Below, one piece after another: positions 1,079-28,184 of a DNA stretch of 36,635 nucleotides. Below the pieces are notes generated by a model. It was not told where the DNA came from. It was given only the letters and a program-made list of their open reading frames with translations, and ran no database searches. Source of the stretch: a virus (Duplodnaviria; Heunggongvirae; Uroviricota; Caudoviricetes); IMG/VR virus record IMGVR_UViG_2744054854_000005. One strand, written 5' to 3'. Numbering within the stretch: the first letter of the stretch is position 1; every line of letters begins with the position of its first letter. The position numbers and the translations under genes were made by a program.

Positions 1079-1136
1079 AAATTTAACTGTATATACAACC
1101 AGTAATCAATGTGTGATTGCTATGAAACATACATTG

Positions 1137-2813
1137 CTAAGCAACATGTAGTTCATCGTTGGCGGAAGTGGCTGCTTTGCGTTCCTGATCAATAGATAGT
1201 GACTCTCTATATTCTTTCGCCTCTGCAAACATTGTCCAGTGGGCATTGATGTTCATATCTTCAATAACCGATTTAATTTCTTTAATATTTACGTTAAAAA
1301 ACTCTTTTCGTGAGTTAATTTTATTGACCTGCTTTTCGTTGAAGACTTTATGCAGATGATTTTCTAATGACGGTGCATCATCACTATAAATCATCGCATG
1401 AACATCGAACGAAAAAGGAACACTAGCATCCCCAAGTTCACGAACACGATCAAGTGGTTCAAGGCGGCGTGTCATTCCAATTTTATATACATCTTCGCCA
1501 AATGAGCCAATATTGCTAATTATATAAACATGGCCTGATCTAGTTTGTTGAGCCATAGAAATAGCTCGTTGGTTTTTAGCTTCAGCTTCTTCATATTTTA
1601 ACTGTAGTTCAGCTATTTTTTGCTCCAAAGCTAAGCGTTGTTCTTCATTTGCAAGCATAAGCTCTTTCGTTGCTTTATTTATAGCTTGCTGAATAGCTTT
1701 CTCTTCTTTTTCGGCTTCTTTTATCGCTTTTTCATACTCTCTACGAGCTCTTTCCTCTTCACGAAGCTGTTCTTTAATCCTTCTTTGCTCCTCTTTTTCT
1801 TCGAGCATAATTTCATTAACTGCAACTCCCCATTTTAGCTCGTTGAGTCGTGCCTGAAGATAGATGTCACTTATTTTTGCGGATCTAAAAGCAGAGCCAT
1901 TATAATTTACAAGTTGAAATGCATCTTTTATTTCTTGGGAAAGTTTTCCAAAATTGTTGTGTTTGACTTTTGATAAAATACTGTCAACTCTTCCATTGAA
2001 GGCATCCAAAACAAAGTTGATAGCAGTATTACGCCTGTTTTGCTCAACATAATCACACGAAGCTGCTTTATTAGTTTTTATTAATGATTTTGTTAACTCC
2101 CTGGCTTTTTGTAATTCCTTGCCTGCATCTGTAAACTCATAATTTTCTGCCAATTCATCAAGTACACTACGGTTAGGGATGATCCATTCATCGCCATAAC
2201 CTTCAATTTTATTTTTCATTGATTTGGCAACTGCTTCATATTTTTCTGCAAACTCTTTAGCTTCATATGCTGAACCAGCAATCTCTTTTGCTCTTTCTTC
2301 TGCATCGGAAATAATTTTTACTGCGTTGTCATTAGCATTTGAGATCAGCTCATTTGCTTTACTGTTGGCATTATCAAGACGTTCTTTGGCTTTCAGGCGT
2401 GCATCGCGAGCGTCTTTGGTGATTGCTATAGCTTCGCTATTAGCGTTGCTTATTGTTATCTGAGCTTGATAACTTGCTTCGTTTACTGTCTTAGCTGCCT
2501 TTATTTGGGCTTCTTCTATTTTTTGCCTAGCTATTGAGTCTGCATTTTTTATCTTATTCTCTGCCTCCATCACTGCGCTGTGCAATTCTTCGTATTGCCA
2601 TAATGGTGCTGCTCGCCCTTCAAGCTCTGATAGATCTCGTGCAGTCTGTGCTAACTTTTCTTGATTTTCACTCAGTTGGCTGGAAAGGGCTATGTTGTTA
2701 GCCGTCAGGTTATCTATGGCGGCTTTGTGTTCTTTACTTTGCTTAAATAATATTATAGCTAGAACAGGGGCGAGAAATGCTAATAAGAATATAACGATGG
2801 AAAATGAATTCAT
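1137..2813 (-). CDS. membrane-anchored coiled-coil protein with C-terminal T5orf172 (GIY-YIG-like) domain; DUF4041-like architecture; candidate defense/abortive-infection cargo
   Basis: 558 aa. N-terminal hydrophobic helix (FSIVIFLLAFLAPVLAIILF), long Ala/Lys/Glu-rich coiled coil, C-terminal motif GHVYIISNIGSFGEDVYKIGMTRRLEPLDRVRELGDASVPFSFDVHAMIYS...LENHLHKVF...RKEFFNV typical of T5orf172. AAGGA ribosome-binding site 8 nt upstream; strongly AT-rich relative to phage core; inserted 20 bp after the cI stop. Confidence 0.8.
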   Translation of the reverse strand: MNSFSIVIFLLAFLAPVLAIILFKQSKEHKAAIDNLTANNIALSSQLSENQEKLAQTARDLSELEGRAAPLWQYEELHSAVMEAENKIKNADSIARQKIEEAQIKAAKTVNEASYQAQITISNANSEAIAITKDARDARLKAKERLDNANSKANELISNANDNAVKIISDAEERAKEIAGSAYEAKEFAEKYEAVAKSMKNKIEGYGDEWIIPNRSVLDELAENYEFTDAGKELQKARELTKSLIKTNKAASCDYVEQNRRNTAINFVLDAFNGRVDSILSKVKHNNFGKLSQEIKDAFQLVNYNGSAFRSAKISDIYLQARLNELKWGVAVNEIMLEEKEEQRRIKEQLREEERARREYEKAIKEAEKEEKAIQQAINKATKELMLANEEQRLALEQKIAELQLKYEEAEAKNQRAISMAQQTRSGHVYIISNIGSFGEDVYKIGMTRRLEPLDRVRELGDASVPFSFDVHAMIYSDDAPSLENHLHKVFNEKQVNKINSRKEFFNVNIKEIKSVIEDMNINAHWTMFAEAKEYRESLSIDQERKAATSANDELHVA

Positions 2814-2833
2814 TTTTAAATCCTTTTACTATA

Positions 2834-3430
2834 TCAATTTGAAACTATTGTACTTCTTATACAAGCAACCACTTCAATATCAGAAAATGCACATTCAAAG
2901 CTATTCTCTGTAGTTGTAATTTTAATCATACCTTTTGGAAGCTTTGTGATTTTTCGAATGGAATAGGTTCCGTCGATGTTGATTAACCAGTGTCCATCAA
3001 GTACTTCAGAAAATTTTTGATCACAAATGTATGTGACAAGCCCATCCTGAATAACAATTGGTGATGAAAGATTTGCAGGAAGAAATGATGAATCGAATAT
3101 ATATGAACCATCTTCAATCATTTTGCCTGCGGTAAGGCGAAACTTGGGAAGCTCTTCTGTGGCTACTGTCAGCGAGCTTTGCTTAAGTCCTTGCCCGGTG
3201 GTTAACCATTTCAGTGAGGTTCCTGTTTCAAGAGCACATTGGATTATCCAGTCTGCAGGAAACGTATCCCGCAAATACCTGTTCGCCAGAGTGCTTTTTG
3301 ATACTTCCAAGTGATCAGCTAAAGCCTGTCGTGTCGTAAAGCCATAAGCTTCGACTAATCGCTCAATCGCAGCCTTACCACCTTTATTGGGATTTATTTT
3401 GATCTCACTTGGGTACTTTGATGTTGACAT
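2834..3430 (-). CDS. cI: 186-type CI immunity repressor
   Basis: 198 aa with N-terminal HTH (GFTTRQALADHLEVSKSTLANRY) and a C-terminal oligomerisation-type domain. Divergent from apl/cII, upstream of int on the same strand. Confidence 0.8.
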   Translation of the reverse strand: MSTSKYPSEIKINPNKGGKAAIERLVEAYGFTTRQALADHLEVSKSTLANRYLRDTFPADWIIQCALETGTSLKWLTTGQGLKQSSLTVATEELPKFRLTAGKMIEDGSYIFDSSFLPANLSSPIVIQDGLVTYICDQKFSEVLDGHWLINIDGTYSIRKITKLPKGMIKITTTENSFECAFSDIEVVACIRSTIVSN

Positions 3431-3525
3431 ATCTCTTTTGCGATCCTAGTATCAGTTTTGTCCCCATTTGGGTACTTGTCACGATTACTACAGGCTCACC
3501 ACAAGCCAATAGGAGATGTTGCATC

Positions 3526-3747
3526 ATGACCCCTAACATTTCAATAACTCTGAATACGCCACATGTCACAATTGAGCGTTATAGCGAACTTACTGGTCTT
3601 TCAATCGACACAATTAACGATATGCTGGCTGACGGTCGCATCCCTCGGCATCGCCTTCGGAAAGACAAGAAAAGAGAAAAGGTGATGATCAACCTTGCTG
3701 CTCTTACCGTTGATGCACTTACTGATTGCAATGTTGTATTCAACTAG
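3526..3747 (+). CDS. apl: Apl/Cox-like excisionase and switch regulator
   Basis: 73-aa basic HTH protein, first gene of the rightward early operon. AGGAGA ribosome-binding site upstream of the ATG at 3526; the longer ORF-track start at 3409 lacks one. Confidence 0.7.
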
Positions 3748-3779
3748 TTCCATTTTGGGATACATCAGGGGTGTCGACC

Positions 3780-4289
3780 ATGTTTGATTACCAAGTTTCC
3801 AAACATCCACATTTTGATGAAGCCTGTCGTGCATTCGCATTGCGCCACAACCTGGTGCAACTGGCAGAACGTGCTGGCATGAATGTGCAGATCCTGCGGA
3901 ACAAGCTGAACCCATCTCAACCTCATTTATTAACCGCACCAGAAATCTGGCTGCTTACCGATCTGACTGAAGATTCAACGCTGGTAGATGGTTTTCTGGC
4001 ACAGATTCACTGCCTGCCATGTGTACCGGTTAATGAGGTTGCAAAAGAGAAACTGCCGCATTACGTCATGAGTGCAACTGCAGAGATCGGGCGTGTTGCT
4101 GCAGGTGCGGTATCTGGTGATGTAAAAACCAGTGCAGGTCGTCGTGATGCTATCAGCAGCATTAACTCTGTTACACGACTGATGGCGTTGGCTGCTGTTT
4201 CATTGCAGGCCCGTTTACAGGCTAATCCTGCGATGGCAAGTGCAGTTGATACTGTAACTGGCCTCGGTGCTTCATTCGGTTTGCTGTGA
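3780..4289 (+). CDS. cII: CII-like transcriptional activator of lysogeny
   Basis: 169 aa, matching the size and position of 186 CII and recalled as closely similar to it ([20 protein letters not shown]...). Internal ATG chosen over the ORF-track start. Confidence 0.75.
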
Positions 4290-6025: not shown

Positions 6026-6879
6026 GCACCATCCTGAAATGGGCGGGAAATAAAACCGCCGTAATGTCCGAACTGAAAAAACATCTTCCTGCTGGTCCGC
6101 GACTGGTTGAACCTTTCGCTGGTTCCTGTGCTGTGATGATGGAGACGGATTATCCGTGCTATCTGGTTGCGGATATTAATCCTGATTTAATCAACCTCTA
6201 TAAAAAGGTTGCCGCTGATTGTGAATCGTTTATATCTCGCGCCAAAGTTTTATTTGAGATCGCAAACAGGGAGGTGGCTTATTACAACATAAGGCAGGAG
6301 TTTAATTACTCAACTGAAATTACTGATTTCATGAAAGCGGTATATTTACTGTATCTCAATCGTCACGGTTACCGTGGGTTATGTCGCTATAACAAGAGCG
6401 GGCATTTCAACATTCCCTACGGTAATTATAAAAATCCGTATTTCCCTGAAAAAGAAATTCGCGCATTTGCAGAGAAAGCCCCGCGAGCAACGTTTATCTG
6501 CGCCAGCTTTGATGAAACGCTGGCGATGCTGCAGGTGGGGGATGTGGTGTATTGCGATCCGCCGTATGACGGTACGTTTTCCGGCTATCACACTGATGGC
6601 TTCACTGAGGATGACCAGTATCACCTGGCATCCGTTCTTGAACATCGATCATCTGAAGGTCATCCGGTCATTGTTTCTAACAGTGACACATCCCTGATCC
6701 GTTCGCTGTATCGCAATTTCACTCACCACTACATCAAGGCAAAACGCAGCATCGGCGTGTCGGCTGGCGAGAGTAAATCTGCAACAGAAATCATTGCTGT
6801 TTCCGGGCCGCGCTGCTGGATGGGATTTGATCCTTCGCGTGGCGTGGATAGTTCTGCTGTGTACGAGGTGCGTGTATGA
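6022..6879 (+). CDS. dam: DNA adenine methyltransferase (Dam family)
   Basis: N-terminal LKWAGNK motif and catalytic DPPY ([10 protein letters not shown]). GGAGG ribosome-binding site before the ATG at 6022. Confidence 0.85.
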
Positions 6880-9128
6880 GTCATGACGATATGAGCAACT
6901 CTAGCGGCTTTAACGAGGCTGCCGCAGCATTTTCATGGAACGGCCCGAAAAAGGCCATTAACCCTTATCTGGAACCGGCGGAAGTTGCGCCGGAGTCTGC
7001 ACTTTCAAACATGATCACTCTGTACGCTGCCGATAACGAGCAGGAACAGCGCCGCCGCGAGGCACTGAGTGATCAGGTCTGGGAACGTTATTTCTTTAAT
7101 GAATCCCGTGATCCTGTCCAGCGCGAAATGGAGCAGGATAAGCTCATTAGCCGGGCAAAGCTGGCGCATGAACAGCAGCGTTTTAACCCGGACATGGTCA
7201 TTCTGGCAGATGTCAGCGCCCAGCCTTCCCATATCAGCAAGCCGCAGATGCAACGTATTGAATACTTCAGCAGCCTGGGCAGGCCAAAGGCTTATTCCCG
7301 CTATTTGCGTGAGACGATTAAGCCATGTCTGGAACGGCTGGAGCATGTACGCGACAGTCAGCTATCCACTTCTTTTCGCTTTATGGCAAGCCATGAAGGG
7401 CTGGACGGCCTGTTGATTCTGCCTGAAATGAGTCAGGATCAGGTGAAACGCCTGTCCACCCTTGTTGCTGCGCATATGAGCATGTGCCTTGATGCAGCTT
7501 GTGGCGATTTGTATGCCTCCGATGATGTTAAGCCGGAAGAAATCCGCAAGACATGGGAAAAGGTGGCAGCAGAAACCCTGCGACTGGATGTCATACCGCC
7601 TGCGTTTGAGCAACTCCGCCGGAAAAGAAACCGCCGCAAACCTGTGCCCTATGAACTCATTCCGGGTTCGCTGGCGCGTATGCTGTGCGCCGACTGGTGG
7701 TATCGGAAATTATGGAAGATGCGTTGCGAATGGCGGGAAGAGCAGTTGCGTGCTGTTTGTCTGGTCAGCAAAAAAGCATCTCCCTATGTTAGCTATGAAG
7801 CCGTGATGCATAAACGTGAGCAGCGCCGTAAGTCGCTGGAGTTTTTCCGCTCTCATGAACTGGTGAACGAAGACGGCGACACGCTGGACATGGAGGATGT
7901 GGTAAACGCCAGCAGCAGCAACCCGGCGCATCGCCGCAATGAGATGATGGCCTGCGTTAAAGGTCTGGAGCTTATCGCGGAAATGCGTGGTGACTGCGCC
8001 GTTTTCTACACTATCACCTGTCCGTCACGTTTCCATTCCACGCTAAATAACGGCAGGCCAAACCCGACCTGGACCAACGCGACAGTAAGACAAAGCAGCG
8101 ATTATCTGGTCGGCATGTTTGCTGCATTTCGTAAGGCTATGCACAAATCCGGATTGCGCTGGTATGGCGTGCGGGTGGCTGAGCCGCATCATGACGGTAC
8201 AGTTCACTGGCACCTGTTGTGTTTTATGCGCAAAAAAGATCGCCGCGCCATTACTGCTTTGTTGCGTAAGTTTGCCATACGTGAAGACCGCGAGGAGCTG
8301 GGCAATAACACGGGGCCGCGCTTTAAGTCTGAGTTGATTAACCCGCGCAAAGGAACGCCGACAAGCTACATCGCGAAATATATCAGCAAGAACATTGACG
8401 GGCGTGGTCTGGCTGGCGAGATCAGTAAGGAAACGGGTAAATCTCTGCGTGATAACGCTGAATACGTGAATGCCTGGGCGTCTTTGCATCGTGTTCAGCA
8501 ATTCCGCTTCTTTGGCATTCCGGGGCGCCAGGCTTACCGTGAACTGCGATTGCTGGCTGGTCAGGCGGCAAGGCAACAGGGGGACAAAAAAGCAGGTGCG
8601 CCGGTACTGGATAACCCGCGCNNNNNNNNNNNNNNNNNNNNNNNNNNNNNNNNNNNNNNNNNNGTGAAGTGGAAAATGGTTCGTAAAGCCGTTGACGTTC
8701 AGGAGGCGGTAGCCGACCAGGGCGCTTGCGCCCCTTGGACTCGTGGCAATAACTGTCCCCTTGCTGAAAATTTGAACCAACAAGGGAAAGACAAATCAGC
8801 TTATGGGGATACCAGAACGGACATTACCCGCATGGATGACAAGGAGTTGCACGATTACCTGCACAGTATGAGCAAAAAAGAGCGCCGGGAACTGGCTGCA
8901 AGGTTACGCCTGGTGAAACCGAAACGGCGTAAAGACTACAAACAGCGAATTACAGACCATCAGCGACAGCAGCTCGTCTATGAGCTGAAGTCCAGAGGAT
9001 TTGATGGCAGCGAGAAAGAGGTCGGTTTACTCCTTCGCGGCGGCAGTATTCCGTCAGGAGCAGGCCTGCGTATCTTCTATCGGAACCAGCGTTTGCAGGA
9101 AGATGATAAGTGGCGGGATCTGTATTAA
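6876..9128 (+). CDS. A: replication initiation endonuclease A (rolling-circle initiator, P2 gpA family); contains an assembly gap
   Basis: 750 aa with HWHLLCF and YIAKYISK tyrosine motifs typical of gpA. An in-frame 42-N run lies inside the ORF. Confidence 0.85.
8622..8663. other. assembly gap (42 N) inside gene A
   Basis: Run of n characters; true length unknown. Confidence 0.95.
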
Positions 9129-9280: not shown

Positions 9281-9469
9281 ATGCAGGACTATTTTTTGGA
9301 GTCTTTGAAGCTCCAGCGCATTGATTTTTTTCTTAAGCTTGTAGCGGCTAGTGAGTGTAGTGATGAAGAGAAGGGGCTGGCCCTGCAGTGGGTTTCTGAA
9401 CTAACAGATGAACTCATGGCAAAAATCAGAACCCACGAATACAACCGCTCAATGGATGTCATCAGCTGA
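9281..9469 (+). CDS. SOS-regulated small protein (possible Tum-like antirepressor component)
   Basis: 62-aa ORF with GGAGG ribosome-binding site immediately downstream of the LexA box; position matches the 186 SOS (tum) operon. Function inferred from context only. Confidence 0.4.
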   Translation: MQDYFLESLKLQRIDFFLKLVAASECSDEEKGLALQWVSELTDELMAKIRTHEYNRSMDVIS

Positions 9470-9479
9470 GGTGACTTTT

Positions 9480-9713
9480 ATGCGCATTGAAATAATGATC
9501 GATAAAGAGCAGAAGATTAGCCAGTCTACCCTGGACGCTCTGGAGTCCGAGCTTTACCGCAACCTGCGCCCCCTGTATCCCAAAACGGTAATTCGTATCC
9601 GCAAAGGTAGCTCTAACGGTGTGGAACTTACCGGACTGCAACTGGACGAAGAAAGAAAACAAGTGATGAAAATTATGCAGAAAGTGTGGGAAGACGACAG
9701 CTGGCTGCATTAA
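9480..9713 (+). CDS. DinI-family protein
   Basis: 77 aa, MRIEIMIDKEQ...ELTGLQLDEERKQVMKIMQKVWEDDSW resembles the DinI/MsgA family. GAGGTG ribosome-binding site; coupled to the upstream ORF. Confidence 0.7.
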   Translation: MRIEIMIDKEQKISQSTLDALESELYRNLRPLYPKTVIRIRKGSSNGVELTGLQLDEERKQVMKIMQKVWEDDSWLH

Positions 9714-9848
9714 GAAACGTTGCTGGCGTCTGAACTTGCTTCTGGCGTCAGCAAGGTTGAACAACGAGCCCTTGCGAGGCGTTAGCTCTGTAGTGCATGT
9801 CTATGCCGCATGAGATCGCATGATCGTTTGAGGATCGTTTTTGCTAAG

Positions 9849-9872
9849 GCCCGCCAGAACTGGCGGGCTTTT
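9849..9872 (+). terminator. intrinsic terminator GCCCGCCAG-AA-CTGGCGGGC followed by TTTT
   Basis: 9-bp GC-rich perfect stem, short loop, T-run; ends the SOS operon. Confidence 0.7.
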
Positions 9873-9917
9873 GCGTAGATCATGCAGGTGCATGAAAACC
9901 ACTGCATAAAGCGGGCA

Positions 9918-9936
9918 GGCGTGGCGGGGATACGAG
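9918..9936. promoter_or_regulatory. probable cos site (GGCGTGGCGGGGATACGAG)
   Basis: GC-rich GGCG(A/T)GGCGGGGA motif, matching the start of the P2/186 cohesive-end sequence as recalled from memory, at the expected place near the portal gene. Confidence 0.4.
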
Positions 9937-10014
9937 CGCGCGCTCATGGTTGTCAGTAAGAATTTATGGTATTTACAATATATAAATAATCACCATTTCA
10001 AGGAGATCTGTTGC

Positions 10015-10719
10015 ATGGCTATGTTAGTGGAAAATTGCCCAAGGTGCGGTGCGCAAAAAATAGCATTTGATGTTCGAGGGGCTAACTGCTGTGGTACGTA
10101 TGAAACATTTTCCGGCGAAAATTTACCCGAATATGAAGTATATTGTGTATGCAGGGAGTGTAAGAAAACCACAATATATATTTGCGATAGTTTAGAACGG
10201 GGGCGTGATCTTAGCAGTATTAACTGGGGCATGGCCTTATTTAAGTTAACTGATATTGCAAAAGTAAAACGTCCAATTAGTCCAGCAGATTTAGATGCAG
10301 GAGAACCACCAGAATTTTTGCCTCAGCATATACATGAAGCTTTTGTAGAAGGTTCTAAGTGTTTAGCTATTGGTTGCTATAACGCAGCAGGAACTATGTT
10401 TAGGTTATGTTTGGATTATGCAACAAAGGACTTATTACCCAAGGAAGATGCTGAACCAAATCAAAAAATACGGCGAAGCTTAGGGTTAAGAATGAATTGG
10501 TTGTTTGATAATCAGCGGTTGCCAGAGACTTTAAGAGACTTGGCTGAATGTGTAAAAGATGATGGCAATGACGGCGCGCATGAAGGAGTTTTAGATTACG
10601 CGGCTGCAGAGGATCTTGAAGAGTTCACTTATATATTGTTGGAACGTTTATATACTGAACCTCAACGCCTTGTTCAGGCAAAAGCAAGACGTGAGGATAG
10701 AAGAAAAAATAGAGGGTAG
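10015..10719 (+). CDS. zinc-ribbon plus DUF4145-like protein; candidate defense/abortive-infection cargo
   Basis: 234 aa from an internal ATG with AGGAG ribosome-binding site and TATAAA -10-like element upstream. N-terminal CPRCG...CVCREC zinc ribbon; C-terminal region with GNDGAHEG, reminiscent of the conserved R..GN..AH motif of DUF4145. AT-rich; convergent with Q, 8 bp between stops. Confidence 0.65.
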   Translation: MAMLVENCPRCGAQKIAFDVRGANCCGTYETFSGENLPEYEVYCVCRECKKTTIYICDSLERGRDLSSINWGMALFKLTDIAKVKRPISPADLDAGEPPEFLPQHIHEAFVEGSKCLAIGCYNAAGTMFRLCLDYATKDLLPKEDAEPNQKIRRSLGLRMNWLFDNQRLPETLRDLAECVKDDGNDGAHEGVLDYAAAEDLEEFTYILLERLYTEPQRLVQAKARREDRRKNRG

Positions 10720-21389: not shown

Positions 21390-21987
21390 CCTGCTGCCGC
21401 CCGGTTCATCGCCGCTTGAGCGCCGACTGGCGCAGACCTGCAGCGGCATTTCCGATCTGCAGGTGCCGCTGCGCGACTTGTGGAACCCGGCAACGTGTCC
21501 GGTCAGCTTTCTGCCGTATCTGGCGTGGGCGTTTTCCGTCGACCGCTGGGACGAAAGCTGGACGGAGAGCGTCAAGCGCCGGATGGTGCAGGACGCTTTC
21601 TATATCCATCAGCACAAGGGGACAACCAGCGCTGTGCGGCGCGTGGTGGAGCCGTTCGGCTTCCTGATCCGCATCATTGAGTGGTGGCAGACCGGCGAAA
21701 CGCCGGGGACGTTTCGCCTTGATATTGGCGTGCAGGAACAAGGCATCACGGAAGAAACCTATCTGGAACTTGAGCGGCTGATCGGTGATGCCAAACCGTG
21801 CAGCCGTCACCTGATCGGCATGTCCATCAACCTGCAGACCAGTGGGCCGTATTTTATGGGGGCTGCCACTTACACCGGCGAAGAAATCACGATCTACCCG
21901 TATATCAACGAAACCATTATTTCCGGCGGCACCGCTTATGAGGGCGGGGCAGTCCATGTTATTGACACAATGAGAGTAAATCCATGA
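21382..21987 (+). CDS. I: baseplate/tail protein I
   Basis: 201 aa, P2 gpI-like. Confidence 0.8.
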   Translation: MNSLLPPGSSPLERRLAQTCSGISDLQVPLRDLWNPATCPVSFLPYLAWAFSVDRWDESWTESVKRRMVQDAFYIHQHKGTTSAVRRVVEPFGFLIRIIEWWQTGETPGTFRLDIGVQEQGITEETYLELERLIGDAKPCSRHLIGMSINLQTSGPYFMGAATYTGEEITIYPYINETIISGGTAYEGGAVHVIDTMRVNP

Positions 21988-22975
21988 GCGCAAAATTTTA
22001 CACCCTGCTGACGGAAATCGGGGCGGCGAAACTGGCAAGCGCCGCCGCGCTCGGCATTCCGTTGAAAATTACCCAGATGGCGGTGGGCGACGGTGGTGGC
22101 GTATTACCAACGCCAAGCGCGCAACAGACCGCGTTAGTTGCTGAAAAACACCGCGCCGCGCTGAATATGCTGTATATCGATCCGCAGAACAGCAGCCAGA
22201 TTATTGCTGAGCAGGTGATCCCCGAAACGGAGGGAGGTTGGTGGATTCGTGAGGTAGGTCTGTTTGATGAGACTGGAGCACTGATTGCTGTGGGCAACTG
22301 CCCGGAGAGCTACAAACCGCAGCTGGCGGAGGGGAGCGGGCGCACGCAGACCGTGCGCATGGTGTTGATTACCAGCAGCACAGATAACATCACCCTGAAA
22401 ATTGATCCGGCAGTGGTGCTGGCGACCCGTAAATATGTTGATGACAAGGTGCTGGAACTAAAGGTGTATGTGGATGACCTGATGGCTAGACACCTTGCAG
22501 CTGCAGATCCTCATACGCAGTATGCACCAAAAGCCAGTCCGACATTCACTGGTACGCCAAAAGCACCAACGGCAGCGGCAGGCAATAATTCCACGCAACT
22601 TGCTAATACGGCTTTTGTGCAGGCGGCAATTGCTGCACTGGTGGCATCTTCCCCTGCAGCTCTGGATACACTGAATGAGCTGGCAGCAGCGCTGGGGAAC
22701 GATCCAAATTTTGCCGCCACCATGACAAATGCGCTTGCCGGAAAGATGGATAAGGCAGCCAATGGGACGGACATTGCCGACGTATCAGAATTTCTCAAAA
22801 ACCTTGGAATTAAATCGGCAGCACTGTGTGATGTGGGTGCGGGTACAAACCAAATCCCCGACATGGGTTCGTTTGGAATATTGAAAAACGCGATCGGATA
22901 TCAGTATCTACCAGGTGGACTGATTTTGCAGTGGGGTAAAGTTGGCCCAACCAACGCAGGGCAAACTACAAACGT
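21984..22975 (+). CDS. H: tail fiber protein H, N-terminal conserved part; 3' end lost in assembly gap
   Basis: N-terminus MSAKFYTLLTEIGAAKLA... typical of P2-family tail fibers; ORF runs into the N run. Confidence 0.8.
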
Positions 22976-23075
22976 NNNNNNNNNNNNNNNNNNNNNNNNN
23001 NNNNNNNNNNNNNNNNNNNNNNNNNNNNNNNNNNNNNNNNNNNNNNNNNNNNNNNNNNNNNNNNNNNNNNNNNNN
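22976..23075. other. assembly gap (100 N) in the variable tail-fiber region
   Basis: Run of n characters; 100 is a conventional placeholder length, so the missing sequence may be much longer. Confidence 0.95.
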
Positions 23076-23399
23076 TTGATTGAAATTACCCATGTGCTTC
23101 ACCTCCAATTTTGTGGTGCAGCTCCCTCCGGTAAAAAGCTGGGGTCAGTGAATGGGATGCCTGGTTGGGTTGATGTGCCGCCACTGACTGCAGTTGAGTT
23201 GCTGGCAGCGGTAGTAATTAAAAAACAATCGCTCATCAGTGAGGCGAACGTGGTAATCGCACCGCTAAAAGATGCGTCAGATGGTGGATATATCGATGCT
23301 GCAGACGCACCACGACTTGATGCATGGCAGCGATACCGTTATGCGTTAACGAAGGTGGACGCTGCTAACCCGGTGTGGCCGGATAAGCCAGCACAATAA
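23076..23399 (+). CDS. G: tail fiber assembly protein, C-terminal part; 5' end in gap
   Basis: C-terminus ...PRLDAWQRYRYALTKVDAANPVWPDKPAQ is the hallmark ending of Tfa/gpG-type chaperones; the ORF track fuses it to H only because the Ns are read as codons. Confidence 0.6.
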   Translation: MIEITHVLHLQFCGAAPSGKKLGSVNGMPGWVDVPPLTAVELLAAVVIKKQSLISEANVVIAPLKDASDGGYIDAADAPRLDAWQRYRYALTKVDAANPVWPDKPAQ

Positions 23400-23726
23400 T
23401 AACTATTTATATTTTATGGAAAATGGCAGGCTATCTTGGATACCCTGAAATATGAATCATAAATACTGACAAAATATGTTTATATGTTACCTGAAAAGTC
23501 GTTGCAATGCTCCACACAGCCAGTCGCGCAAGGAAGTGGCTGGATATAGCGGGTCAAGATCAGAGTTTGAATCGAGTCGTGATGGGGGGCGAGGTACACT
23601 AATGGCTTAGGGAAAGGGTAGCATTGACTTGGTTTTCATGTCAATGCTAAAATTATACTTTATTATTTATGAATGCTCTTGGTGTAATTATTAAGAGCAA
23701 ATCTAATGGCGGCAAGGATTTATTTG

Positions 23727-24833
23727 ATGAGTTTGCTAAGTAGGTTTTGGGGGGAATGGTTTAAAAGTTATGGTGATACTGATTTTATAACGGGCATTCG
23801 TGCTTTTGCTATTCTTTCAGTTATTCTTATTCATTCCGGTGGCGCTGGTCTTCGTTATTTTGGATGGTATGGTAATAATTTAGCAAACTTGGGTGCAATG
23901 GGGCCGTGTATTTTTTTTGTTATATCCGGTTATAGTGTTTCTGTGTCATATGAGAAATCATCTTGTTATTTGTCCTTTCTAAAAAATAGAATATTAAGAA
24001 TTGCCCCATTATATTATTTTTGGATTGTTGTCTTCATTTTGTTATTTCAGGGGGTTGGGTATTGGGGGGAGAGATATGGCGCATCCTTAAATTTTTATAA
24101 TTTATTAATGCACATCTCATTCTTAAGTTTTGCTGATTATAGAGTGGCGAATTCAATATTAGGCGTTGAATGGTCTTTATCCATTGAAGTTTTCTGGTAT
24201 ATTTTTTTACCGGCAATCATTCTCGTAATGAGAAGTAAAACGTCAGTATGCATAATGTTAATTACGTCCTGGTTATTATTTACGATATCCTTGATTATAT
24301 TGAAGTCTTACTCCTCCCCTAACAACGGTGATGTAATGATCGCATATTATTGGACTCCATTTCCGTATTTTTTCTCGTTTTGTGCTGGTGTGGCAGCATA
24401 TAGGGTGCGGTCTTGGTGGAGATTTTCAGGGTTAAGTGCAGATATTGCATTGTTATTGTCTATAACACTCATTCTTTTATATCCCATTATGGAAAGATAT
24501 AGTGTTAACAAAATAATCGATAAGCCCGTTCTATTCTCCATGCTCACTATGGTGAACATTTCCGTTGGGAATAAAGATGGTCATATATTACGATCTTTAT
24601 TATGTAATAAAGTATCTATATTTATTGGTTCGATAAGTTATAGTCTGTATTTATCTCATTATGTAGTTATTTTTTTGGTTGGGCCGTACCTAACTGAATT
24701 TAAAGAAAACTCTATATGGCATTTTATAATATTCCTACTAATATCTATAATTGGAAGTGTTTTTACTTATATCTTAATAGAAAGGGTGTTAACTGATAAA
24801 ATAAAGCATTTTATTGACTCGAGAATGAAATAG
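23727..24833 (+). CDS. acyltransferase family 3 integral membrane protein (OafA/Oac-like, possible O-antigen acetylase)
   Basis: Motif ITGIRAFAILSVILIHSGG near the N-terminus and about 10 hydrophobic helices; very AT-rich. ATG at 23727 has an AAGGA ribosome-binding site; the ORF-track ATG at 23706 does not. Confidence 0.75.
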   Translation: MSLLSRFWGEWFKSYGDTDFITGIRAFAILSVILIHSGGAGLRYFGWYGNNLANLGAMGPCIFFVISGYSVSVSYEKSSCYLSFLKNRILRIAPLYYFWIVVFILLFQGVGYWGERYGASLNFYNLLMHISFLSFADYRVANSILGVEWSLSIEVFWYIFLPAIILVMRSKTSVCIMLITSWLLFTISLIILKSYSSPNNGDVMIAYYWTPFPYFFSFCAGVAAYRVRSWWRFSGLSADIALLLSITLILLYPIMERYSVNKIIDKPVLFSMLTMVNISVGNKDGHILRSLLCNKVSIFIGSISYSLYLSHYVVIFLVGPYLTEFKENSIWHFIIFLLISIIGSVFTYILIERVLTDKIKHFIDSRMK

Positions 24834-24915
24834 GCAGCATTAATTAAATCACAATAATTGATCTGGAAGCTCTATAGTGCCGGGTGCAACATAATGCACT
24901 TTGTTGCTGCAAACA

Positions 24916-24950
24916 ATTAGCGCAAGATGACGATGTTGCCTTGCGCTAAT
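24916..24950 (+). terminator. hairpin with 11-bp perfect arms (ATTAGCGCAAG / CTTGCGCTAAT) and 13-nt loop downstream of the acyltransferase
   Basis: Seen in sequence; followed by AT-rich sequence rather than a clean T-run, so terminator function is uncertain. Confidence 0.35.
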
Positions 24951-25039
24951 ATATTAAATTCACACCAGCGTCAAACTTGCGCCCCTTCATCACCGCCTCA
25001 TCAGTGATTATCATCCTCGCTTCAAAATCAACCTTTGAA

Positions 25040-25065
25040 AATGGTCACCTATATAGGTGACCATT
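25040..25065 (-). terminator. 26-bp perfect palindrome AATGGTCACCTATATAGGTGACCATT, 5 bp after the stop of the minus-strand 140-aa gene, followed on that strand by TTTT
   Basis: Seen in sequence. Position and U-run fit an intrinsic terminator; perfect symmetry would also fit a dimeric protein-binding site. Confidence 0.45.
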
Positions 25066-25069
25066 CGGG

Positions 25070-25492
25070 TTAATGCAGCGTTGTAGTTGAGCTGGACTCT
25101 GCCATTGCCACTGTCAATTCATCGCCTTCGGCTGAGATCTTAATGGTATTACTTCCTTCTGATTTAGCGCCTTTTGGTAGACCTAGCTGATCATAGATAC
25201 ACAAGAATCTTGAATCATTTATAAAGGTGATTTCTGTTACAGTCCCACCTTCAACGACCTTAGAGTCTATTGATTTTATCAAATTGATATCCTGAACATT
25301 AATGTGCTTTATCGCATCCCAGTTAAGGCTGATGTCCACGTTATCCTTTTGCATCGTTATCACATGACCGGCCTTATGCTGGGTTGTGACTTTTCCATCA
25401 GGGCTCATCGTAATCTTTTGCCCCATGTGATAAATAATTTGAGTTCCGTCTTCGAGACACTCGATTTTTGGCTCTTTAGTAAAGTCGTTCAT
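25070..25492 (-). CDS. hypothetical protein, no recognisable domain
   Basis: 140 aa, AAGGA ribosome-binding site, AT-rich, divergent from the invertase gene. Confidence 0.55.
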   Translation of the reverse strand: MNDFTKEPKIECLEDGTQIIYHMGQKITMSPDGKVTTQHKAGHVITMQKDNVDISLNWDAIKHINVQDINLIKSIDSKVVEGGTVTEITFINDSRFLCIYDQLGLPKGAKSEGSNTIKISAEGDELTVAMAESSSTTTLH

Positions 25493-25697
25493 GAAAATCC
25501 TTCAATTATCTGTTGCTGGAAGGTGCTAATCTACACGAATCCTTGGTTATGTATGTAATGAGGCTCTAGAAATCCACTTGAATATAAATAAATTTTTATG
25601 GTGTTGGCTTGTAATGCTCGCGTAGCTCTTTGTCAAAAGTGAAACTCTGATAACCTGGTTCTACTGACGAACAGAAGGATGAGCAGGAGATCGCTTT

Positions 25698-26258
25698 ATG
25701 ATTATTGGGTATGCACGAGTATCAAGTAATCATCAGGACACCGAGCTTCAGATGCAGGCGCTCAGAGCTGCTGGCTGTAAGTTAATTTTTGAGGAAAAGG
25801 CTTCTGGCCGTAAGACGAATCGACCAATCTTGAAGAAAGTGGTTGAGATGCTTGAACCCGGTGACGAACTGGTCATCTGGAAGTTAGATCGTATCGGTCG
25901 CAATGTACTGCACGCATTATTGACCTTTCAGAGCCTCGCAGAACGCAATGTTAATATTCGTTCTATTACAGATGGCGTTGACCTGAGCACTGCCAGTGGG
26001 CGCTATAACTTCCGTAATATTCTCTCTGCGGCACAATATGAGTCTGATCTGAATAGTGAACGCACTCTGGCAGGGTTAGCGGTTGCCCGCGCTAAGGGGA
26101 GGATTGGCGGACGTAAGCCTAAGTATACTGATGAGCACTGGGATGCGTTTGAACGGGAAATTAAGTCCGGCTGCTCACATCGTGATATAGCTCTCAAATA
26201 TGGGGTCGGCCTGTCGACTCTCTACAAACGTTATCCGGCTCAGCAAGAGCATCACTAA
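25698..26258 (+). CDS. serine recombinase, DNA invertase (Hin/Gin/Cin/Pin family)
   Basis: 186 aa; N-terminal catalytic region MIIGYARVSSNHQ with the catalytic serine, and C-terminal HTH (GCSHRDIALKYGVGLSTLYKRY). AGGAGA ribosome-binding site. Confidence 0.85.
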   Translation: MIIGYARVSSNHQDTELQMQALRAAGCKLIFEEKASGRKTNRPILKKVVEMLEPGDELVIWKLDRIGRNVLHALLTFQSLAERNVNIRSITDGVDLSTASGRYNFRNILSAAQYESDLNSERTLAGLAVARAKGRIGGRKPKYTDEHWDAFEREIKSGCSHRDIALKYGVGLSTLYKRYPAQQEHH

Positions 26259-26343
26259 ACACTCTTTGCGTTCATTTTTGCACTGTGCAGAATGTGTCTT
26301 TTTGGCACCTTCTGGCAGTGCAAAATTTATCGCGTTTTGGTGC

Positions 26344-26383
26344 AAAAAAAATCGCCGCGCTACAATCTGCGGGGATTTTTTTT
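26344..26383. terminator. bidirectional intrinsic terminator (A8-TCGCCGC-loop-GCGGGGA-T8)
   Basis: GC stem flanked by an A-tract and a T-tract, between the invertase and the FI late promoter. Confidence 0.55.
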
Positions 26384-26394
26384 GCCCCTTCCAT

Positions 26395-26412
26395 TGTGCC
26401 ATTCTCCACACA
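26395..26412 (+). promoter_or_regulatory. late-promoter activator site TGT-N12-ACA upstream of FI
   Basis: TGTGCCATTCTCCACACA, about 84 bp upstream of the FI start. Confidence 0.5.
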
Positions 26413-26486
26413 TAGCCCGGTGCGTGCGCAGTGCGCATATCAACCAGAACATAGGCAGACACCCTGTAAACCGGAGAGACTGCCTT

Positions 26487-27659
26487 ATGGCTCAGGACTA
26501 CCACCACGGCGTGCGCGTTGTTGAAATCAACGAGGGCACCCGATCCATTACCACGGTGAGCACCGCCATTGTGGGCATGGTATGCACCGGCGATGATGCT
26601 GATGCGTCCATGTTTCCACTCAATAAGCCGGTTCTGCTGACCGATGTGTTGACCGCCAGCGGTAAAGCGGGCGAGTCCGGCACGCTGGCCCGTTCGCTGG
26701 ATGCGATTGCAGACCAGGCTAAACCCGTGACCGTCGTTGTACGTGTGGCGCAGGGCGAAACCGAAGCGGAAACCACCTCCAACATTATCGGCGGCGTGAC
26801 CGCTGACGGTAAAAAGACGGGCATGAAAGCGCTGCTTTCGGCGCAGTCGCAGCTCGGCGTCAAGCCGCGCATTCTCGGCGTGCCGGGACACGACACGCAG
26901 GCGGTTGCCACTGAGCTGCTGAGCGTGGCGCAGAGCCTGCGCGGGTTTGCTTATCTGTCCGCCTATGGCTGCAAAACGGTGGAAGAAGCGATTGCCTACC
27001 GTGACAATTTCAGCCAGCGCGAGGGGATGCTGATCTGGCCTGACTTCATCAACTTTGACACCGTGCTGAATGCAGATGCGACGGCTTACGCCTCCGCTCG
27101 TGCGCTCGGCCTGCGTGCCAAAATTGACGAGCAGACCGGCTGGCACAAAACCCTGTCCAACGTGGGCGTGAATGGTGTCACCGGCATTTCCGCTGATGTG
27201 TTCTGGGATCTGCAGGACCCGGCAACCGATGCGGGACTGTTGAACCAGAACGACGTCACCACGCTTATCCGCAAAGACGGCTTCCGCTTCTGGGGTTCCC
27301 GCTGCCTCAGTGACGATCCGCTGTTTGCCTTTGAGAACTACACCCGCACGGCGCAGGTGCTGGCTGACACCATCGCAGAAGCGCACATGTGGGCGGTGGA
27401 TGGCGTGCTTAACCCATCGCTGGCCCGTGACATTATCGAAGGTATCCGCGCCAAGCTGCGCAGCCTGAAAGCGCAGGGTTACATCATCGGCGCAGACTGC
27501 TGGCTGGATGAGTCGGTGAACGATAAAGACTCCCTGAAAGCCGGGAAGCTCACTATCGACTACGACTACACGCCGGTGCCGCCGCTTGAAAACCTGATGC
27601 TGCGCCAGCGCATCACCGATCAGTACCTGCTGGATTTCTCCAGCCAGGTCAGCGCGTAA
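26487..27659 (+). CDS. FI: tail sheath protein
   Basis: 390 aa from an internal ATG ([17 protein letters not shown]...), P2 gpFI-like. Confidence 0.9.
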
Positions 27660-27668
27660 GGGGACACC

Positions 27669-28184
27669 ATGGCTTTACCACGTAAGTTAAAACACCTGAA
27701 CCTGTTCAACGACGGGAACAACTGGCAGGGGATCGTTGAGTCTCTGACCCTGCCGAAATTCACCCGCAAGTTTGAGAAGTATCGCGGCGGCGGTATGCCG
27801 GGCGCGGTGGACGTGGATATGGGGCTGGATGACGGCGCACTGGACACGGAATTTTCAATCGGTGGCACTGAACTGCTGTTATTCAAGCAGATGGGCAAGG
27901 CCACCGTTGACGGCATCCAGCTGCGTTTCACCGGCTCCATTCAGCGTGACGATACCGGGGAAGTGCAGGCCGTTGAGCTGGTTGTGCGCGGGCGCCATAA
28001 AGAAGTGGATTCCGGCGAGTGGAAAACCGGCGAGAGCAGCAGCACCAAAGTCAGCAGCACCAACAGCTACGCGAAGCTGACCATTAACGGTGAGGTGCTC
28101 TATGAGGTCGATCTGGTCAACATGGTTGAAATCGTTGACGGCGTGGACCTGATGGAAGAACACCGTAACGCCCTCGGCCTCTGA
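27669..28184 (+). CDS. FII: tail tube protein
   Basis: 171 aa, P2 gpFII-like. Confidence 0.9.
   Translation: MALPRKLKHLNLFNDGNNWQGIVESLTLPKFTRKFEKYRGGGMPGAVDVDMGLDDGALDTEFSIGGTELLLFKQMGKATVDGIQLRFTGSIQRDDTGEVQAVELVVRGRHKEVDSGEWKTGESSSTKVSSTNSYAKLTINGEVLYEVDLVNMVEIVDGVDLMEEHRNALGL

Follow-up and report, generated by a model that had tools for sequence, protein, structure and literature searches.

An acyltransferase gene within a tail-fibre cassette bounded by putative invertase crossover sites in a P2-like prophage of Escherichia coli

Introduction

What brings a membrane acyltransferase gene, a small gene for 140 amino acids (aa) and a DNA invertase gene together between the tail-fibre gene H and the sheath gene FI of a P2-like prophage? 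The question is raised by IMG/VR record IMGVR_UViG_2744054854_000005, a stretch of 36,635 nucleotides (nt), called the window here at its full length, which is a P2/Fels-2-like prophage of Escherichia coli. The interval between the fibre-assembly (chaperone) gene G and FI is a published cargo slot of P2-like prophages, 'moron position 2', and in prophage φb0847 of E. coli CFT073 it holds the acyltransferase gene neaT, which has effects on virulence, on aggregation and on the association with phagocytes (Wiles et al. 2013, PMC3573123). An earlier note, made from the letters of the window alone, had rightly named this hotspot and had described the DNA from 23400 onward as one very AT-rich island with an unusual combination of three genes, the invertase being an orphan. 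All three genes are present and intact where it placed them, and Pfam and PHROGs agree with its description of them. The comparisons below suggest a different organisation, in which the supposed island is the right part of a fibre cassette bounded by crossover sites, followed by an invertase module.

Results

Putative crossover sites and mosaic boundaries

Two putative crossover sites of 26 bp, in inverted orientation and with complementary cores, one of them in the fibre gene, enclose the tip of H, the chaperone gene and the acyltransferase gene (Table 1). Among all positions of the window, site L matches a half-site of the Din (hix/gix) type best by a wide margin, with an outer half in the top 1e-5 of 12-mers, and it occupies the same position as the sites in Escherichia phage Cartapus, in Mu (gixL) and in the E. 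coli prophage L003 (comparison loci are given as L numbers). Site R has the core and the outer half of site R in the canonical segments L003, L004 and L016-L021, and it was located from the homology breakpoint with L003. When the interval was compared with complete E. coli genomes by megablast, the match ran only from 25025 onward (99.8% identity), and in the matching genomes this breakpoint is site R, which in the version of L003 reads TTCTCCCAAACC AA CCTTTGAAAATG and has an inner half different from that of the window. A candidate for site R at 25536 (CACGAATCC TT GGTTATG) was rejected since its core polarity is wrong and the resulting fusion frame stops after three codons.

The DNA on the two sides of site R has different relatives. 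From 22792/3 to 25036/43 the window is 99.5-99.9% identical to L005 and L006, P2-like prophages that are only 65-70% identical to it elsewhere and whose Gin-like invertase has shrunk to 91 aa through an internal deletion. The Mu-like prophages L024-L026 have an equally close copy of the cassette, and an invertase of 182 aa that is 72% identical to that of the window. Homology to L005 and L024 begins at L, and homology to L005, L024 and L027 stops at R, where that to L003 and L011 starts. At L the outer halves differ by backbone (TTCTCAAAAACC, TTCTTAAAAACC or CTCTCACAAACC) and all copies then share TT GGAATTAAATCG; at R the cassette copies share CGCTTCAAAATC AA CCTTT and then diverge. To the right, positions 25025-28000 are 99.8-99.9% identical to L003, L004, L011 and L016-L021, and two Mu-like prophages, L019 and L028, likewise have the part up to about 26364, with the 140-aa gene and the invertase gene. 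Most P2-like loci with this module hold two-fibre segments.

As the earlier note had proposed, the invertase is of the Hin/Gin type: residues 1-185 align with the full length of Mu Gin (3uj3; E=5e-55, 49% identity), and R7, S9, D64, R65 and R68 align with their equivalents in Gin, so that the catalytic residues are kept. The exact protein was found in 1283 indexed blocks of a contig collection. Taken together, the comparisons make it probable that the interval is the junction of two modules and not a three-gene island, that the cassette was transferred as a whole among P2-like and Mu-like prophages that are unrelated, its junctions lying at the crossover sites, and that the invertase is a resident fibre-switch recombinase and no orphan.

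The variable DNA does not start at 23400, as had been supposed, but within H. The constant part of H is 82-94% identical in nt to Fels-2-like and φb0847-like prophages up to about 22738-22745, homology to the φb0847 backbone ends at 22628/22745 and restarts at 26394, and the DNA that varies among backbone relatives runs from 22745 to 26393. Upstream of FI there is a TGT-N12-ACA motif, which we take to be a P2 Ogr-type late promoter. Since the motif lies at the exact point where homology to φb0847 restarts, the variable slot ends at the FI promoter. The slot thus has the features of moron position 2, with atypical, non-conserved DNA between the fibre-assembly gene and FI and with promoter-like and terminator-like sites. 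The base composition within it is uneven: the fraction of guanine plus cytosine (GC) is 0.33 in the acyltransferase gene, 0.41 in the 140-aa open reading frame (ORF) and 0.48 in the invertase gene, against 0.51 in the window and about 0.55-0.64 in the neighbouring tail genes. 'Very AT-rich' is therefore right for the acyltransferase gene only.

Table 1. Positions of genes, sites and signals between the fibre gene H and the sheath gene FI
Feature	Coordinates	Strand	Details
H, constant N-terminal part, P2 gpH-like	21984..22803	+	PF12571 Phage_tail_fib, E=3.7e-64
Crossover site L	22792..22817		TTCTCAAAAACC TT GGAATTAAATCG; in frame in H (EFLKNLGIKS)
Start of variable fibre tip (Gp53-like_C), running into the gap	22818..22975	+	weak PF21882 match in the window
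Run of 100 N	22976..23075		scaffold gap of the source assembly; conceals 281 nt (end of H and start of chaperone gene)
Tail-fibre assembly chaperone, 3' part (P2 G / Mu U equivalent)	23076..23399	+	PF02413 Caudo_TAP, E=1.4e-14; phrog_188; 137 aa in L023
Hairpin overlapping a sigma-70-like promoter	23619..23653	+	TTGACT-18-TAAAAT with TG (extended -10); 70 bp 5' of the acyltransferase gene
AT3-only membrane O-acyltransferase	23727..24833	+	368 aa; PF01757; 375 aa if started at the ATG further upstream (23706)
Stem-loop, terminator-like	24916..24950		3' of the acyltransferase gene; -18.6 kcal/mol, z = -3.2 on the + strand
Crossover site R	25011..25036		CGCTTCAAAATC AA CCTTTGAAAATG; weak inner half; core complementary to that of L
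Perfect 26-bp palindrome	25040..25065	-	hairpin followed by UUUUC; -22.5 kcal/mol, z = -4.7
140-aa ORFan	25070..25492	-	flanked by site R, which separates it from the segment, and by the invertase gene, from which it diverges
Gin/Hin-family serine DNA invertase	25698..26258	+	186 aa; PF00239 and PF02796
A-run/T-run hairpin, strong, bidirectional terminator-like	26339..26388		3' of the invertase gene; -28 kcal/mol, z = -4.0
TGT-N12-ACA motif	26395..26412	+	upstream of FI; homology to the φb0847 backbone restarts here

The fibre gene and in-silico inversion

The run of N in the fibre region is also present in L022 (GCA_001640145.1), which is 100% identical to the window, and thus the gap belongs to the public record. 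In a gap-free twin, L023 (Logan contig ERR3985105_94, 99.95% identical), 281 nt are readable in its place. H has 393 aa in L023, and the full Gp53-like_C domain is called there and in the gap-free copy L005. When the segment of the twin was inverted in silico at the cores, H was truncated to 301 aa, that is, 277 constant residues followed by DFEARMIITDEAVMKGRKFDAGVNLIY and a stop, whereas the same operation on the controls L003 and Cartapus yielded a full-length alternative H in frame, of 509 and 471 aa. Inversion of this cassette would not swap two in-frame C-terminal segments.

Since no alternative fibre is left and inversion leads only to a truncated H, the segment is probably fixed or rarely flipped in the orientation seen. 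Nine public contigs carry this acyltransferase gene and all have one orientation; the second orientation was not seen in this small and perhaps clonal sample. Exact-pattern scans for the native junctions or for the inverted junctions predicted in silico (AAAAACCTTGATTTTGAAGCGAGG and CGATTTAATTCCAACCTTTGAAAATGG; L' ...TTCTCAAAAACCTTGATTTTGAAGCGAGG, R' ...GCCGATTTAATTCCAACCTTTGAAAATGG) found none in viral contigs and two chance matches in metagenome contigs, and were uninformative. Among L003-L021 no clean pair was found with the same canonical segment in both orientations.

Segments with one fibre set are not confined to the window. In L019 and L028 (Citrobacter murliniae CP163158) the invertase module stands at the right end of a Mu-like prophage, with one fibre-plus-chaperone set and weak inner halves of R. 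Single-fibre segments with this invertase therefore recur. H itself differs from that of its relatives in length. Positions 22536-22744 hold a single copy of the motif ..ALDTLNELAAALGNDPNF.. that is duplicated in the relatives, and the constant part is about 76 aa shorter, and site L is reached after 808 nt of the gene, compared with about 1036 nt in the relatives.

The acyltransferase

The protein matched PF01757, the acyltransferase-3 (AT3) family, over profile positions 3-325 of 326 (E=5.8e-31; 108 bits against a cut-off of 31), and its best match in PHROGs was phrog_3333, 'O-acetyltransferase' (E=2e-49). Two AT3 motifs, R/K-X10-H in the first transmembrane segment and RXXR in the first cytoplasmic loop, are considered functionally important (PMC9558356). 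Both are present, as R25-X10-H36 and R88-I-L-R91, together with FFVISG at 63-68. A crude Kyte-Doolittle scan gave 9-10 hydrophobic 19-mers, and there is no second Pfam domain and no fused SGNH domain. The start codon at 23727 has the better ribosome-binding site and agrees with a public annotation of 368 aa. Upstream, the putative promoter is predicted from 10 of 12 consensus matches, and the hairpin that overlaps it has -15 kcal/mol and z = -2.7.

The acyltransferase gene is rare, and megablast of the interval did not find it among 5426 complete E. coli genomes. The closest protein relatives are from Yersinia (63-64% identity), followed by one protein at 51% and then by proteins at about 45% or less, of which the named ones are from Pseudomonas and rhizobia; the closest homologues outside enterobacteria (about 43%) are chromosomal OafA/YrhL-type proteins of these bacteria. 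The best match among deposited phages has 28% identity, and the PDB holds no solved relative. In Yersinia, the gene for the 64% protein is flanked by the chaperone gene and FI in P2-like prophages without an invertase.

Other AT3 genes occupy the same slot in close relatives. The closest backbone relatives, L011 and L012 (GCA_025888915.1 and GCA_031785095.1; flanks 94% and 99.9% identical to the window), carry a different AT3 protein of 328 aa that is 26% identical, on the strand opposite to H (locus coordinates 6424-7900). The site R next to it is intact (TTGTCGTAAACC AA CCTTTGAAAATG), upstream there is what is left of an alternative fibre tip, and in-silico inversion of that segment also truncates H. 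A third AT3 gene is neaT of CFT073, antisense in the same slot; BLASTP found no match between NeaT and the protein of the window at E<=1e-3, and thus did not identify the latter as a NeaT orthologue. Three unrelated AT3 genes occur in this slot among close relatives, i.e., it has been occupied recurrently by such genes, and together with the frequency of the invertase sequence this speaks against the view that the gene combination is unusual. In one further contig (L027, SRR1535358, positions 2150-4210) the acyltransferase unit occurs alone, corresponding to 23403-25036 of the window. Its left neighbours are P22-antirepressor-like genes, and its left junction, which may be a product of recombination at a secondary site, abuts the half-site-like ATCCCGAATACC CC.

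The 140-aa gene

The gene between site R and the invertase gene has its own ATG and a good ribosome-binding site, and the perfect palindrome behind it is likely to be its terminator. Its product is predicted to be soluble and all-beta, with an isoelectric point of 5.1. The earlier note saw no recognisable domain in it, and we also found no match in Pfam, PHROGs or PADLOC, only a spurious sub-threshold match in NCBIfam and nothing by tblastn against phages. Among 5.8e9 proteins it is represented by a single 90% cluster. A full HMMER search of 1.8e9 representatives returned three weak relatives, besides a spurious match to an Ig repeat, and exhaustive HMMER and profile searches together gave three or four remote homologues of 26-41% identity. 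AlphaFold2 models reached a pLDDT of 43 from the single sequence and 61 from an alignment of four sequences. The remote homologues are neither beside invertase genes nor fibre-associated; their neighbourhoods are a polyvalent LPD/MuF protein (Serratia), an island of accessory genes and a place near a phage baseplate gene. In the Serratia case (L031, Serratia plymuthica JADCNO010000015.1, 365-5835) the homologue is 26% identical and adjoins a polyvalent protein of 2758 aa (LPD1/LPD5/MuF_C/LPD38) in a mobile element. A scan of genome contigs for the protein found only Citrobacter murliniae. We treat the gene as a putative small moron, independent of its neighbours; no observation supports a role for it in modulating inversion.

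Other features of the prophage

The right end of the prophage leads into ybjL-ybjM-grxA-nfsA, a host stretch present in 5420 of the 5426 complete E. coli genomes. Its backbone is 84-96% identical in nt to φb0847, and the integration locus (ybjL/b0847) is the same. The tail genes are in the order V, W, J, I, H (from 21984), the interval, FI (26487-27659), FII, E and T. When positions 22500-26600 were scanned for Rfam families and tRNAs, no match exceeded the threshold. The window has a second run of N, 42 bases long, at 8622-8663.

Two other regions also differ from φb0847. Between the integrase gene (1-1053) and the CI repressor gene (2834-3430), an AT-rich gene (GC 0.35-0.39) on the minus strand at 1137-2813 codes for 558 aa with DUF4041 and T5orf172/MUG113 domains. 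It lies within a stretch (1113-3477) that is missing from φb0847 and is a candidate slot for defence-type cargo. In 'moron position 1', between the replication and portal genes (9408-10719), there are a DinI-family gene (9408-9713) and a gene for a 257-aa DUF4145 protein (9946-10719), and the segment 9944-10818 is not common to the window and φb0847.

Discussion

The arrangement can be compared with several known systems. Like the G segment of Mu with Gin (and the C segment of P1 with Cin), the window has a 26-bp site in the fibre gene at the boundary of its constant and variable parts, a tip and a chaperone gene within the segment, and a partner site that neighbours the gene of a small serine invertase, which can be aligned with Gin over its full length. 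Unlike Mu, it has a single fibre set, the second being replaced by the acyltransferase gene, and inversion truncates the fibre. In addition, the 140-aa gene puts about 660 bp between site R and the invertase gene, where Mu has about 67 bp, and the identity to Gin is only 49%. P2-like invertible segments are known from Cartapus, from L003, L004 and L016-L021, and as a decayed remnant from Salmonella phage RE-2010. They share with the window the frame of H, chaperone gene, invertase gene and FI, and in L003, L004 and L016-L021 the module of the 140-aa gene and the invertase gene is identical. Their own order resembles the Mu G segment: H, chaperone, a second chaperone and a second tip (Sv') on the minus strand, invertase, FI. 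They have strong inner half-sites (scores 9-12, from a matrix built on hix/gix halves only), whereas the window has an AT3 gene in the slot and weak inner halves.

Prophage φb0847 is similar in its E. coli host, in the ybjL/b0847 locus and in the AT-rich PF01757 acyltransferase gene in moron position 2. It differs in that the two proteins have no detectable similarity, neaT is antisense to the tail genes, and there is neither an invertase nor a site R, while the acyltransferase gene of the window is in sense orientation, inside a cassette bounded by sites and beside an intact invertase gene. The O-antigen acetylases of phages (Sf6 Oac/OacA, φV10, oac of the ε15-like SPN1S) are likewise AT3-only, with R/K-X10-H and RXXR, prophage-borne and AT-rich, but their identity to the protein of the window is at most 28% and, instead of being part of a fibre cassette, their genes are found near int/att or among other morons. 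A moron of the AT3 type in this slot is thus of a published kind; what is new is an AT3 gene inside an inversion cassette, travelling with a fibre tip.

In the two-module reading, the left module would be a fibre-specificity cassette with the H tip, the chaperone gene and the acyltransferase gene with its own promoter-like site and hairpin, the last of these occupying the place of the second, oppositely oriented fibre-tip and chaperone genes of the relatives. The right module would be the Gin-family invertase of a fibre switch, with a small ORFan placed in the space from site R to the invertase gene. Expressed in the lysogen from a promoter of its own and acting independently of the invertase, the acyltransferase would move an acyl group across the inner membrane to a surface glycan, most likely the O-antigen or core of lipopolysaccharide, and serotype or receptor availability would change, as with Sf6 Oac and BTP1 GtrC/OafB. 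Acetylation of a surface glycan is its most likely function. The lysogenic conversion that the earlier note had suggested is in this sense reasonable for an intact, AT-rich gene with a promoter-like site. A plausible trajectory would start from a two-fibre switch, in which the second fibre set was replaced by an AT3 moron; the sites and the invertase would then decay, as in L005, and leave a plain moron between G and FI, as in CFT073 and Yersinia.

Several points weigh against parts of this reading. Positions 22745-22798 match neither the backbone relatives nor the other copies of the cassette, and thus the left junction does not coincide exactly with L. Short-homology recombination, instead of catalysis by the invertase, could also account for exchange at the sites. 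The nine contigs in one orientation may be clonal, and assemblers give the majority orientation only. On the same matrix the inner half of R scores 5.5, between those of the two-fibre segments L018 (4.3) and L020 (6.7), so that site quality, and with it the degeneracy of R, is no proof of locking. Among characterised O-acetylases of phages, the nearest share only about 28% identity with the acyltransferase, and the phenotypes of NeaT are aggregation and phagocyte interaction, with no demonstrated change of the O-antigen (PMC3573123). With such distant relatives, the choice of substrate is therefore guesswork.

Alternative readings have to be set against the same evidence. That the interval is one 2.9-kb cargo island at the Z/fun position, with three unrelated genes and an invertase without a target, would agree with the place of the genes, side by side in low-GC DNA after the chaperone gene and before FI, with the published status of the slot and with the Yersinia and CFT073 relatives, which have an AT3 gene there and no invertase. 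This view is nevertheless very improbable: both sites exist, R parts two blocks with different relatives, the identical invertase module accompanies canonical two-fibre invertible segments, and the variable region begins within H. The 140-aa ORF could in turn be imagined as the alternative fibre tip, fused to H on inversion, since in size, strand and adjacency to the invertase gene it resembles the 134-aa Sv' ORF of Cartapus. We rejected this candidate, which is almost certainly wrong. The ORF lies to the right of R and outside the segment, in-silico inversion gives a truncated H, it co-occurs with complete Sv'/chaperone sets in L003, L004, L017, L018 and L021, and it has its own ATG, ribosome-binding site and terminator-like palindrome and remote homologues without association to fibres.

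More weight is due to two further alternatives, which concern what the cassette does. The segment may still flip and act as an ON/OFF switch of the fibre, perhaps with phase-variable acetylation. In favour of this, the intact invertase is identical to the one found in two-fibre segments, L and R have complementary cores (TT/AA), the inner half of R is within the range of two-fibre segments, the homology boundaries at both sites suggest that they were used in the past, and other single-fibre segments go with the same invertase (L011, L019, L028). On the other side, only one orientation is seen in the nine contigs. L has a strong outer half and core, but its inner half scores 0.7 against 9-12 in canonical sites. 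Flipping would give fibreless particles, and in L005 another copy of the cassette stands beside a dead, internally deleted invertase. Active inversion is possible on this balance and appears the less likely state. If it occurs, one state would give virions with complete fibres; the other state would have the 301-aa H, and the chaperone and acyltransferase genes would face the same way as the 140-aa gene, so that their transcription could change. Also against a switch, the promoter-like site of the acyltransferase gene lies inside the segment, and the strong terminator-like hairpin after the 140-aa gene makes read-through into the segment unlikely. The other alternative is that the acyltransferase is a NeaT-like moron for host fitness or virulence, with a substrate other than O-antigen (peptidoglycan, enterobacterial common antigen or exopolysaccharide) and no role in exclusion, its effects being on aggregation, on surface structures or on the interaction with phagocytes. 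neaT is in the same slot, host species and prophage lineage and has such phenotypes (PMC3573123), and the closest homologues outside enterobacteria are chromosomal. The lack of BLASTP similarity to NeaT, the best family matches to PHROGs of phage O-acetyltransferases or O-antigen acetylases and the joint travel of the gene with the fibre tip all speak against this alternative, none of them decisively, and we consider it possible but not the more likely reading.

A stronger form of the two-module reading is that the cassette is a portable unit that infects and then locks, in which the acyltransferase modifies the same glycan that the tip recognises. This is speculative and rather unlikely on present comparisons. 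If it is true, host range and matching superinfection exclusion would be transferred jointly between P2-like and Mu-like phages through Din sites, and the slot of the alternate fibre would be the evolutionary source of the cargo in moron position 2.

For annotation, an invertase gene that a P2-like prophage carries after its fibre genes and before its sheath gene is probably better read as a fibre-switch recombinase than as stray cargo, and the true unit of exchange would be the DNA between the two crossover sites. Acyltransferases, putatively of surface glycans, have repeatedly taken the slot of the second fibre, and one of them appears to travel with a fibre tip between P2-like and Mu-like prophages. 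If this acyltransferase modifies the receptor of the fibre transferred with it, host range and exclusion would be linked in one mobile cassette, which may also be a possible origin of the neaT-type virulence moron of uropathogenic E. coli.

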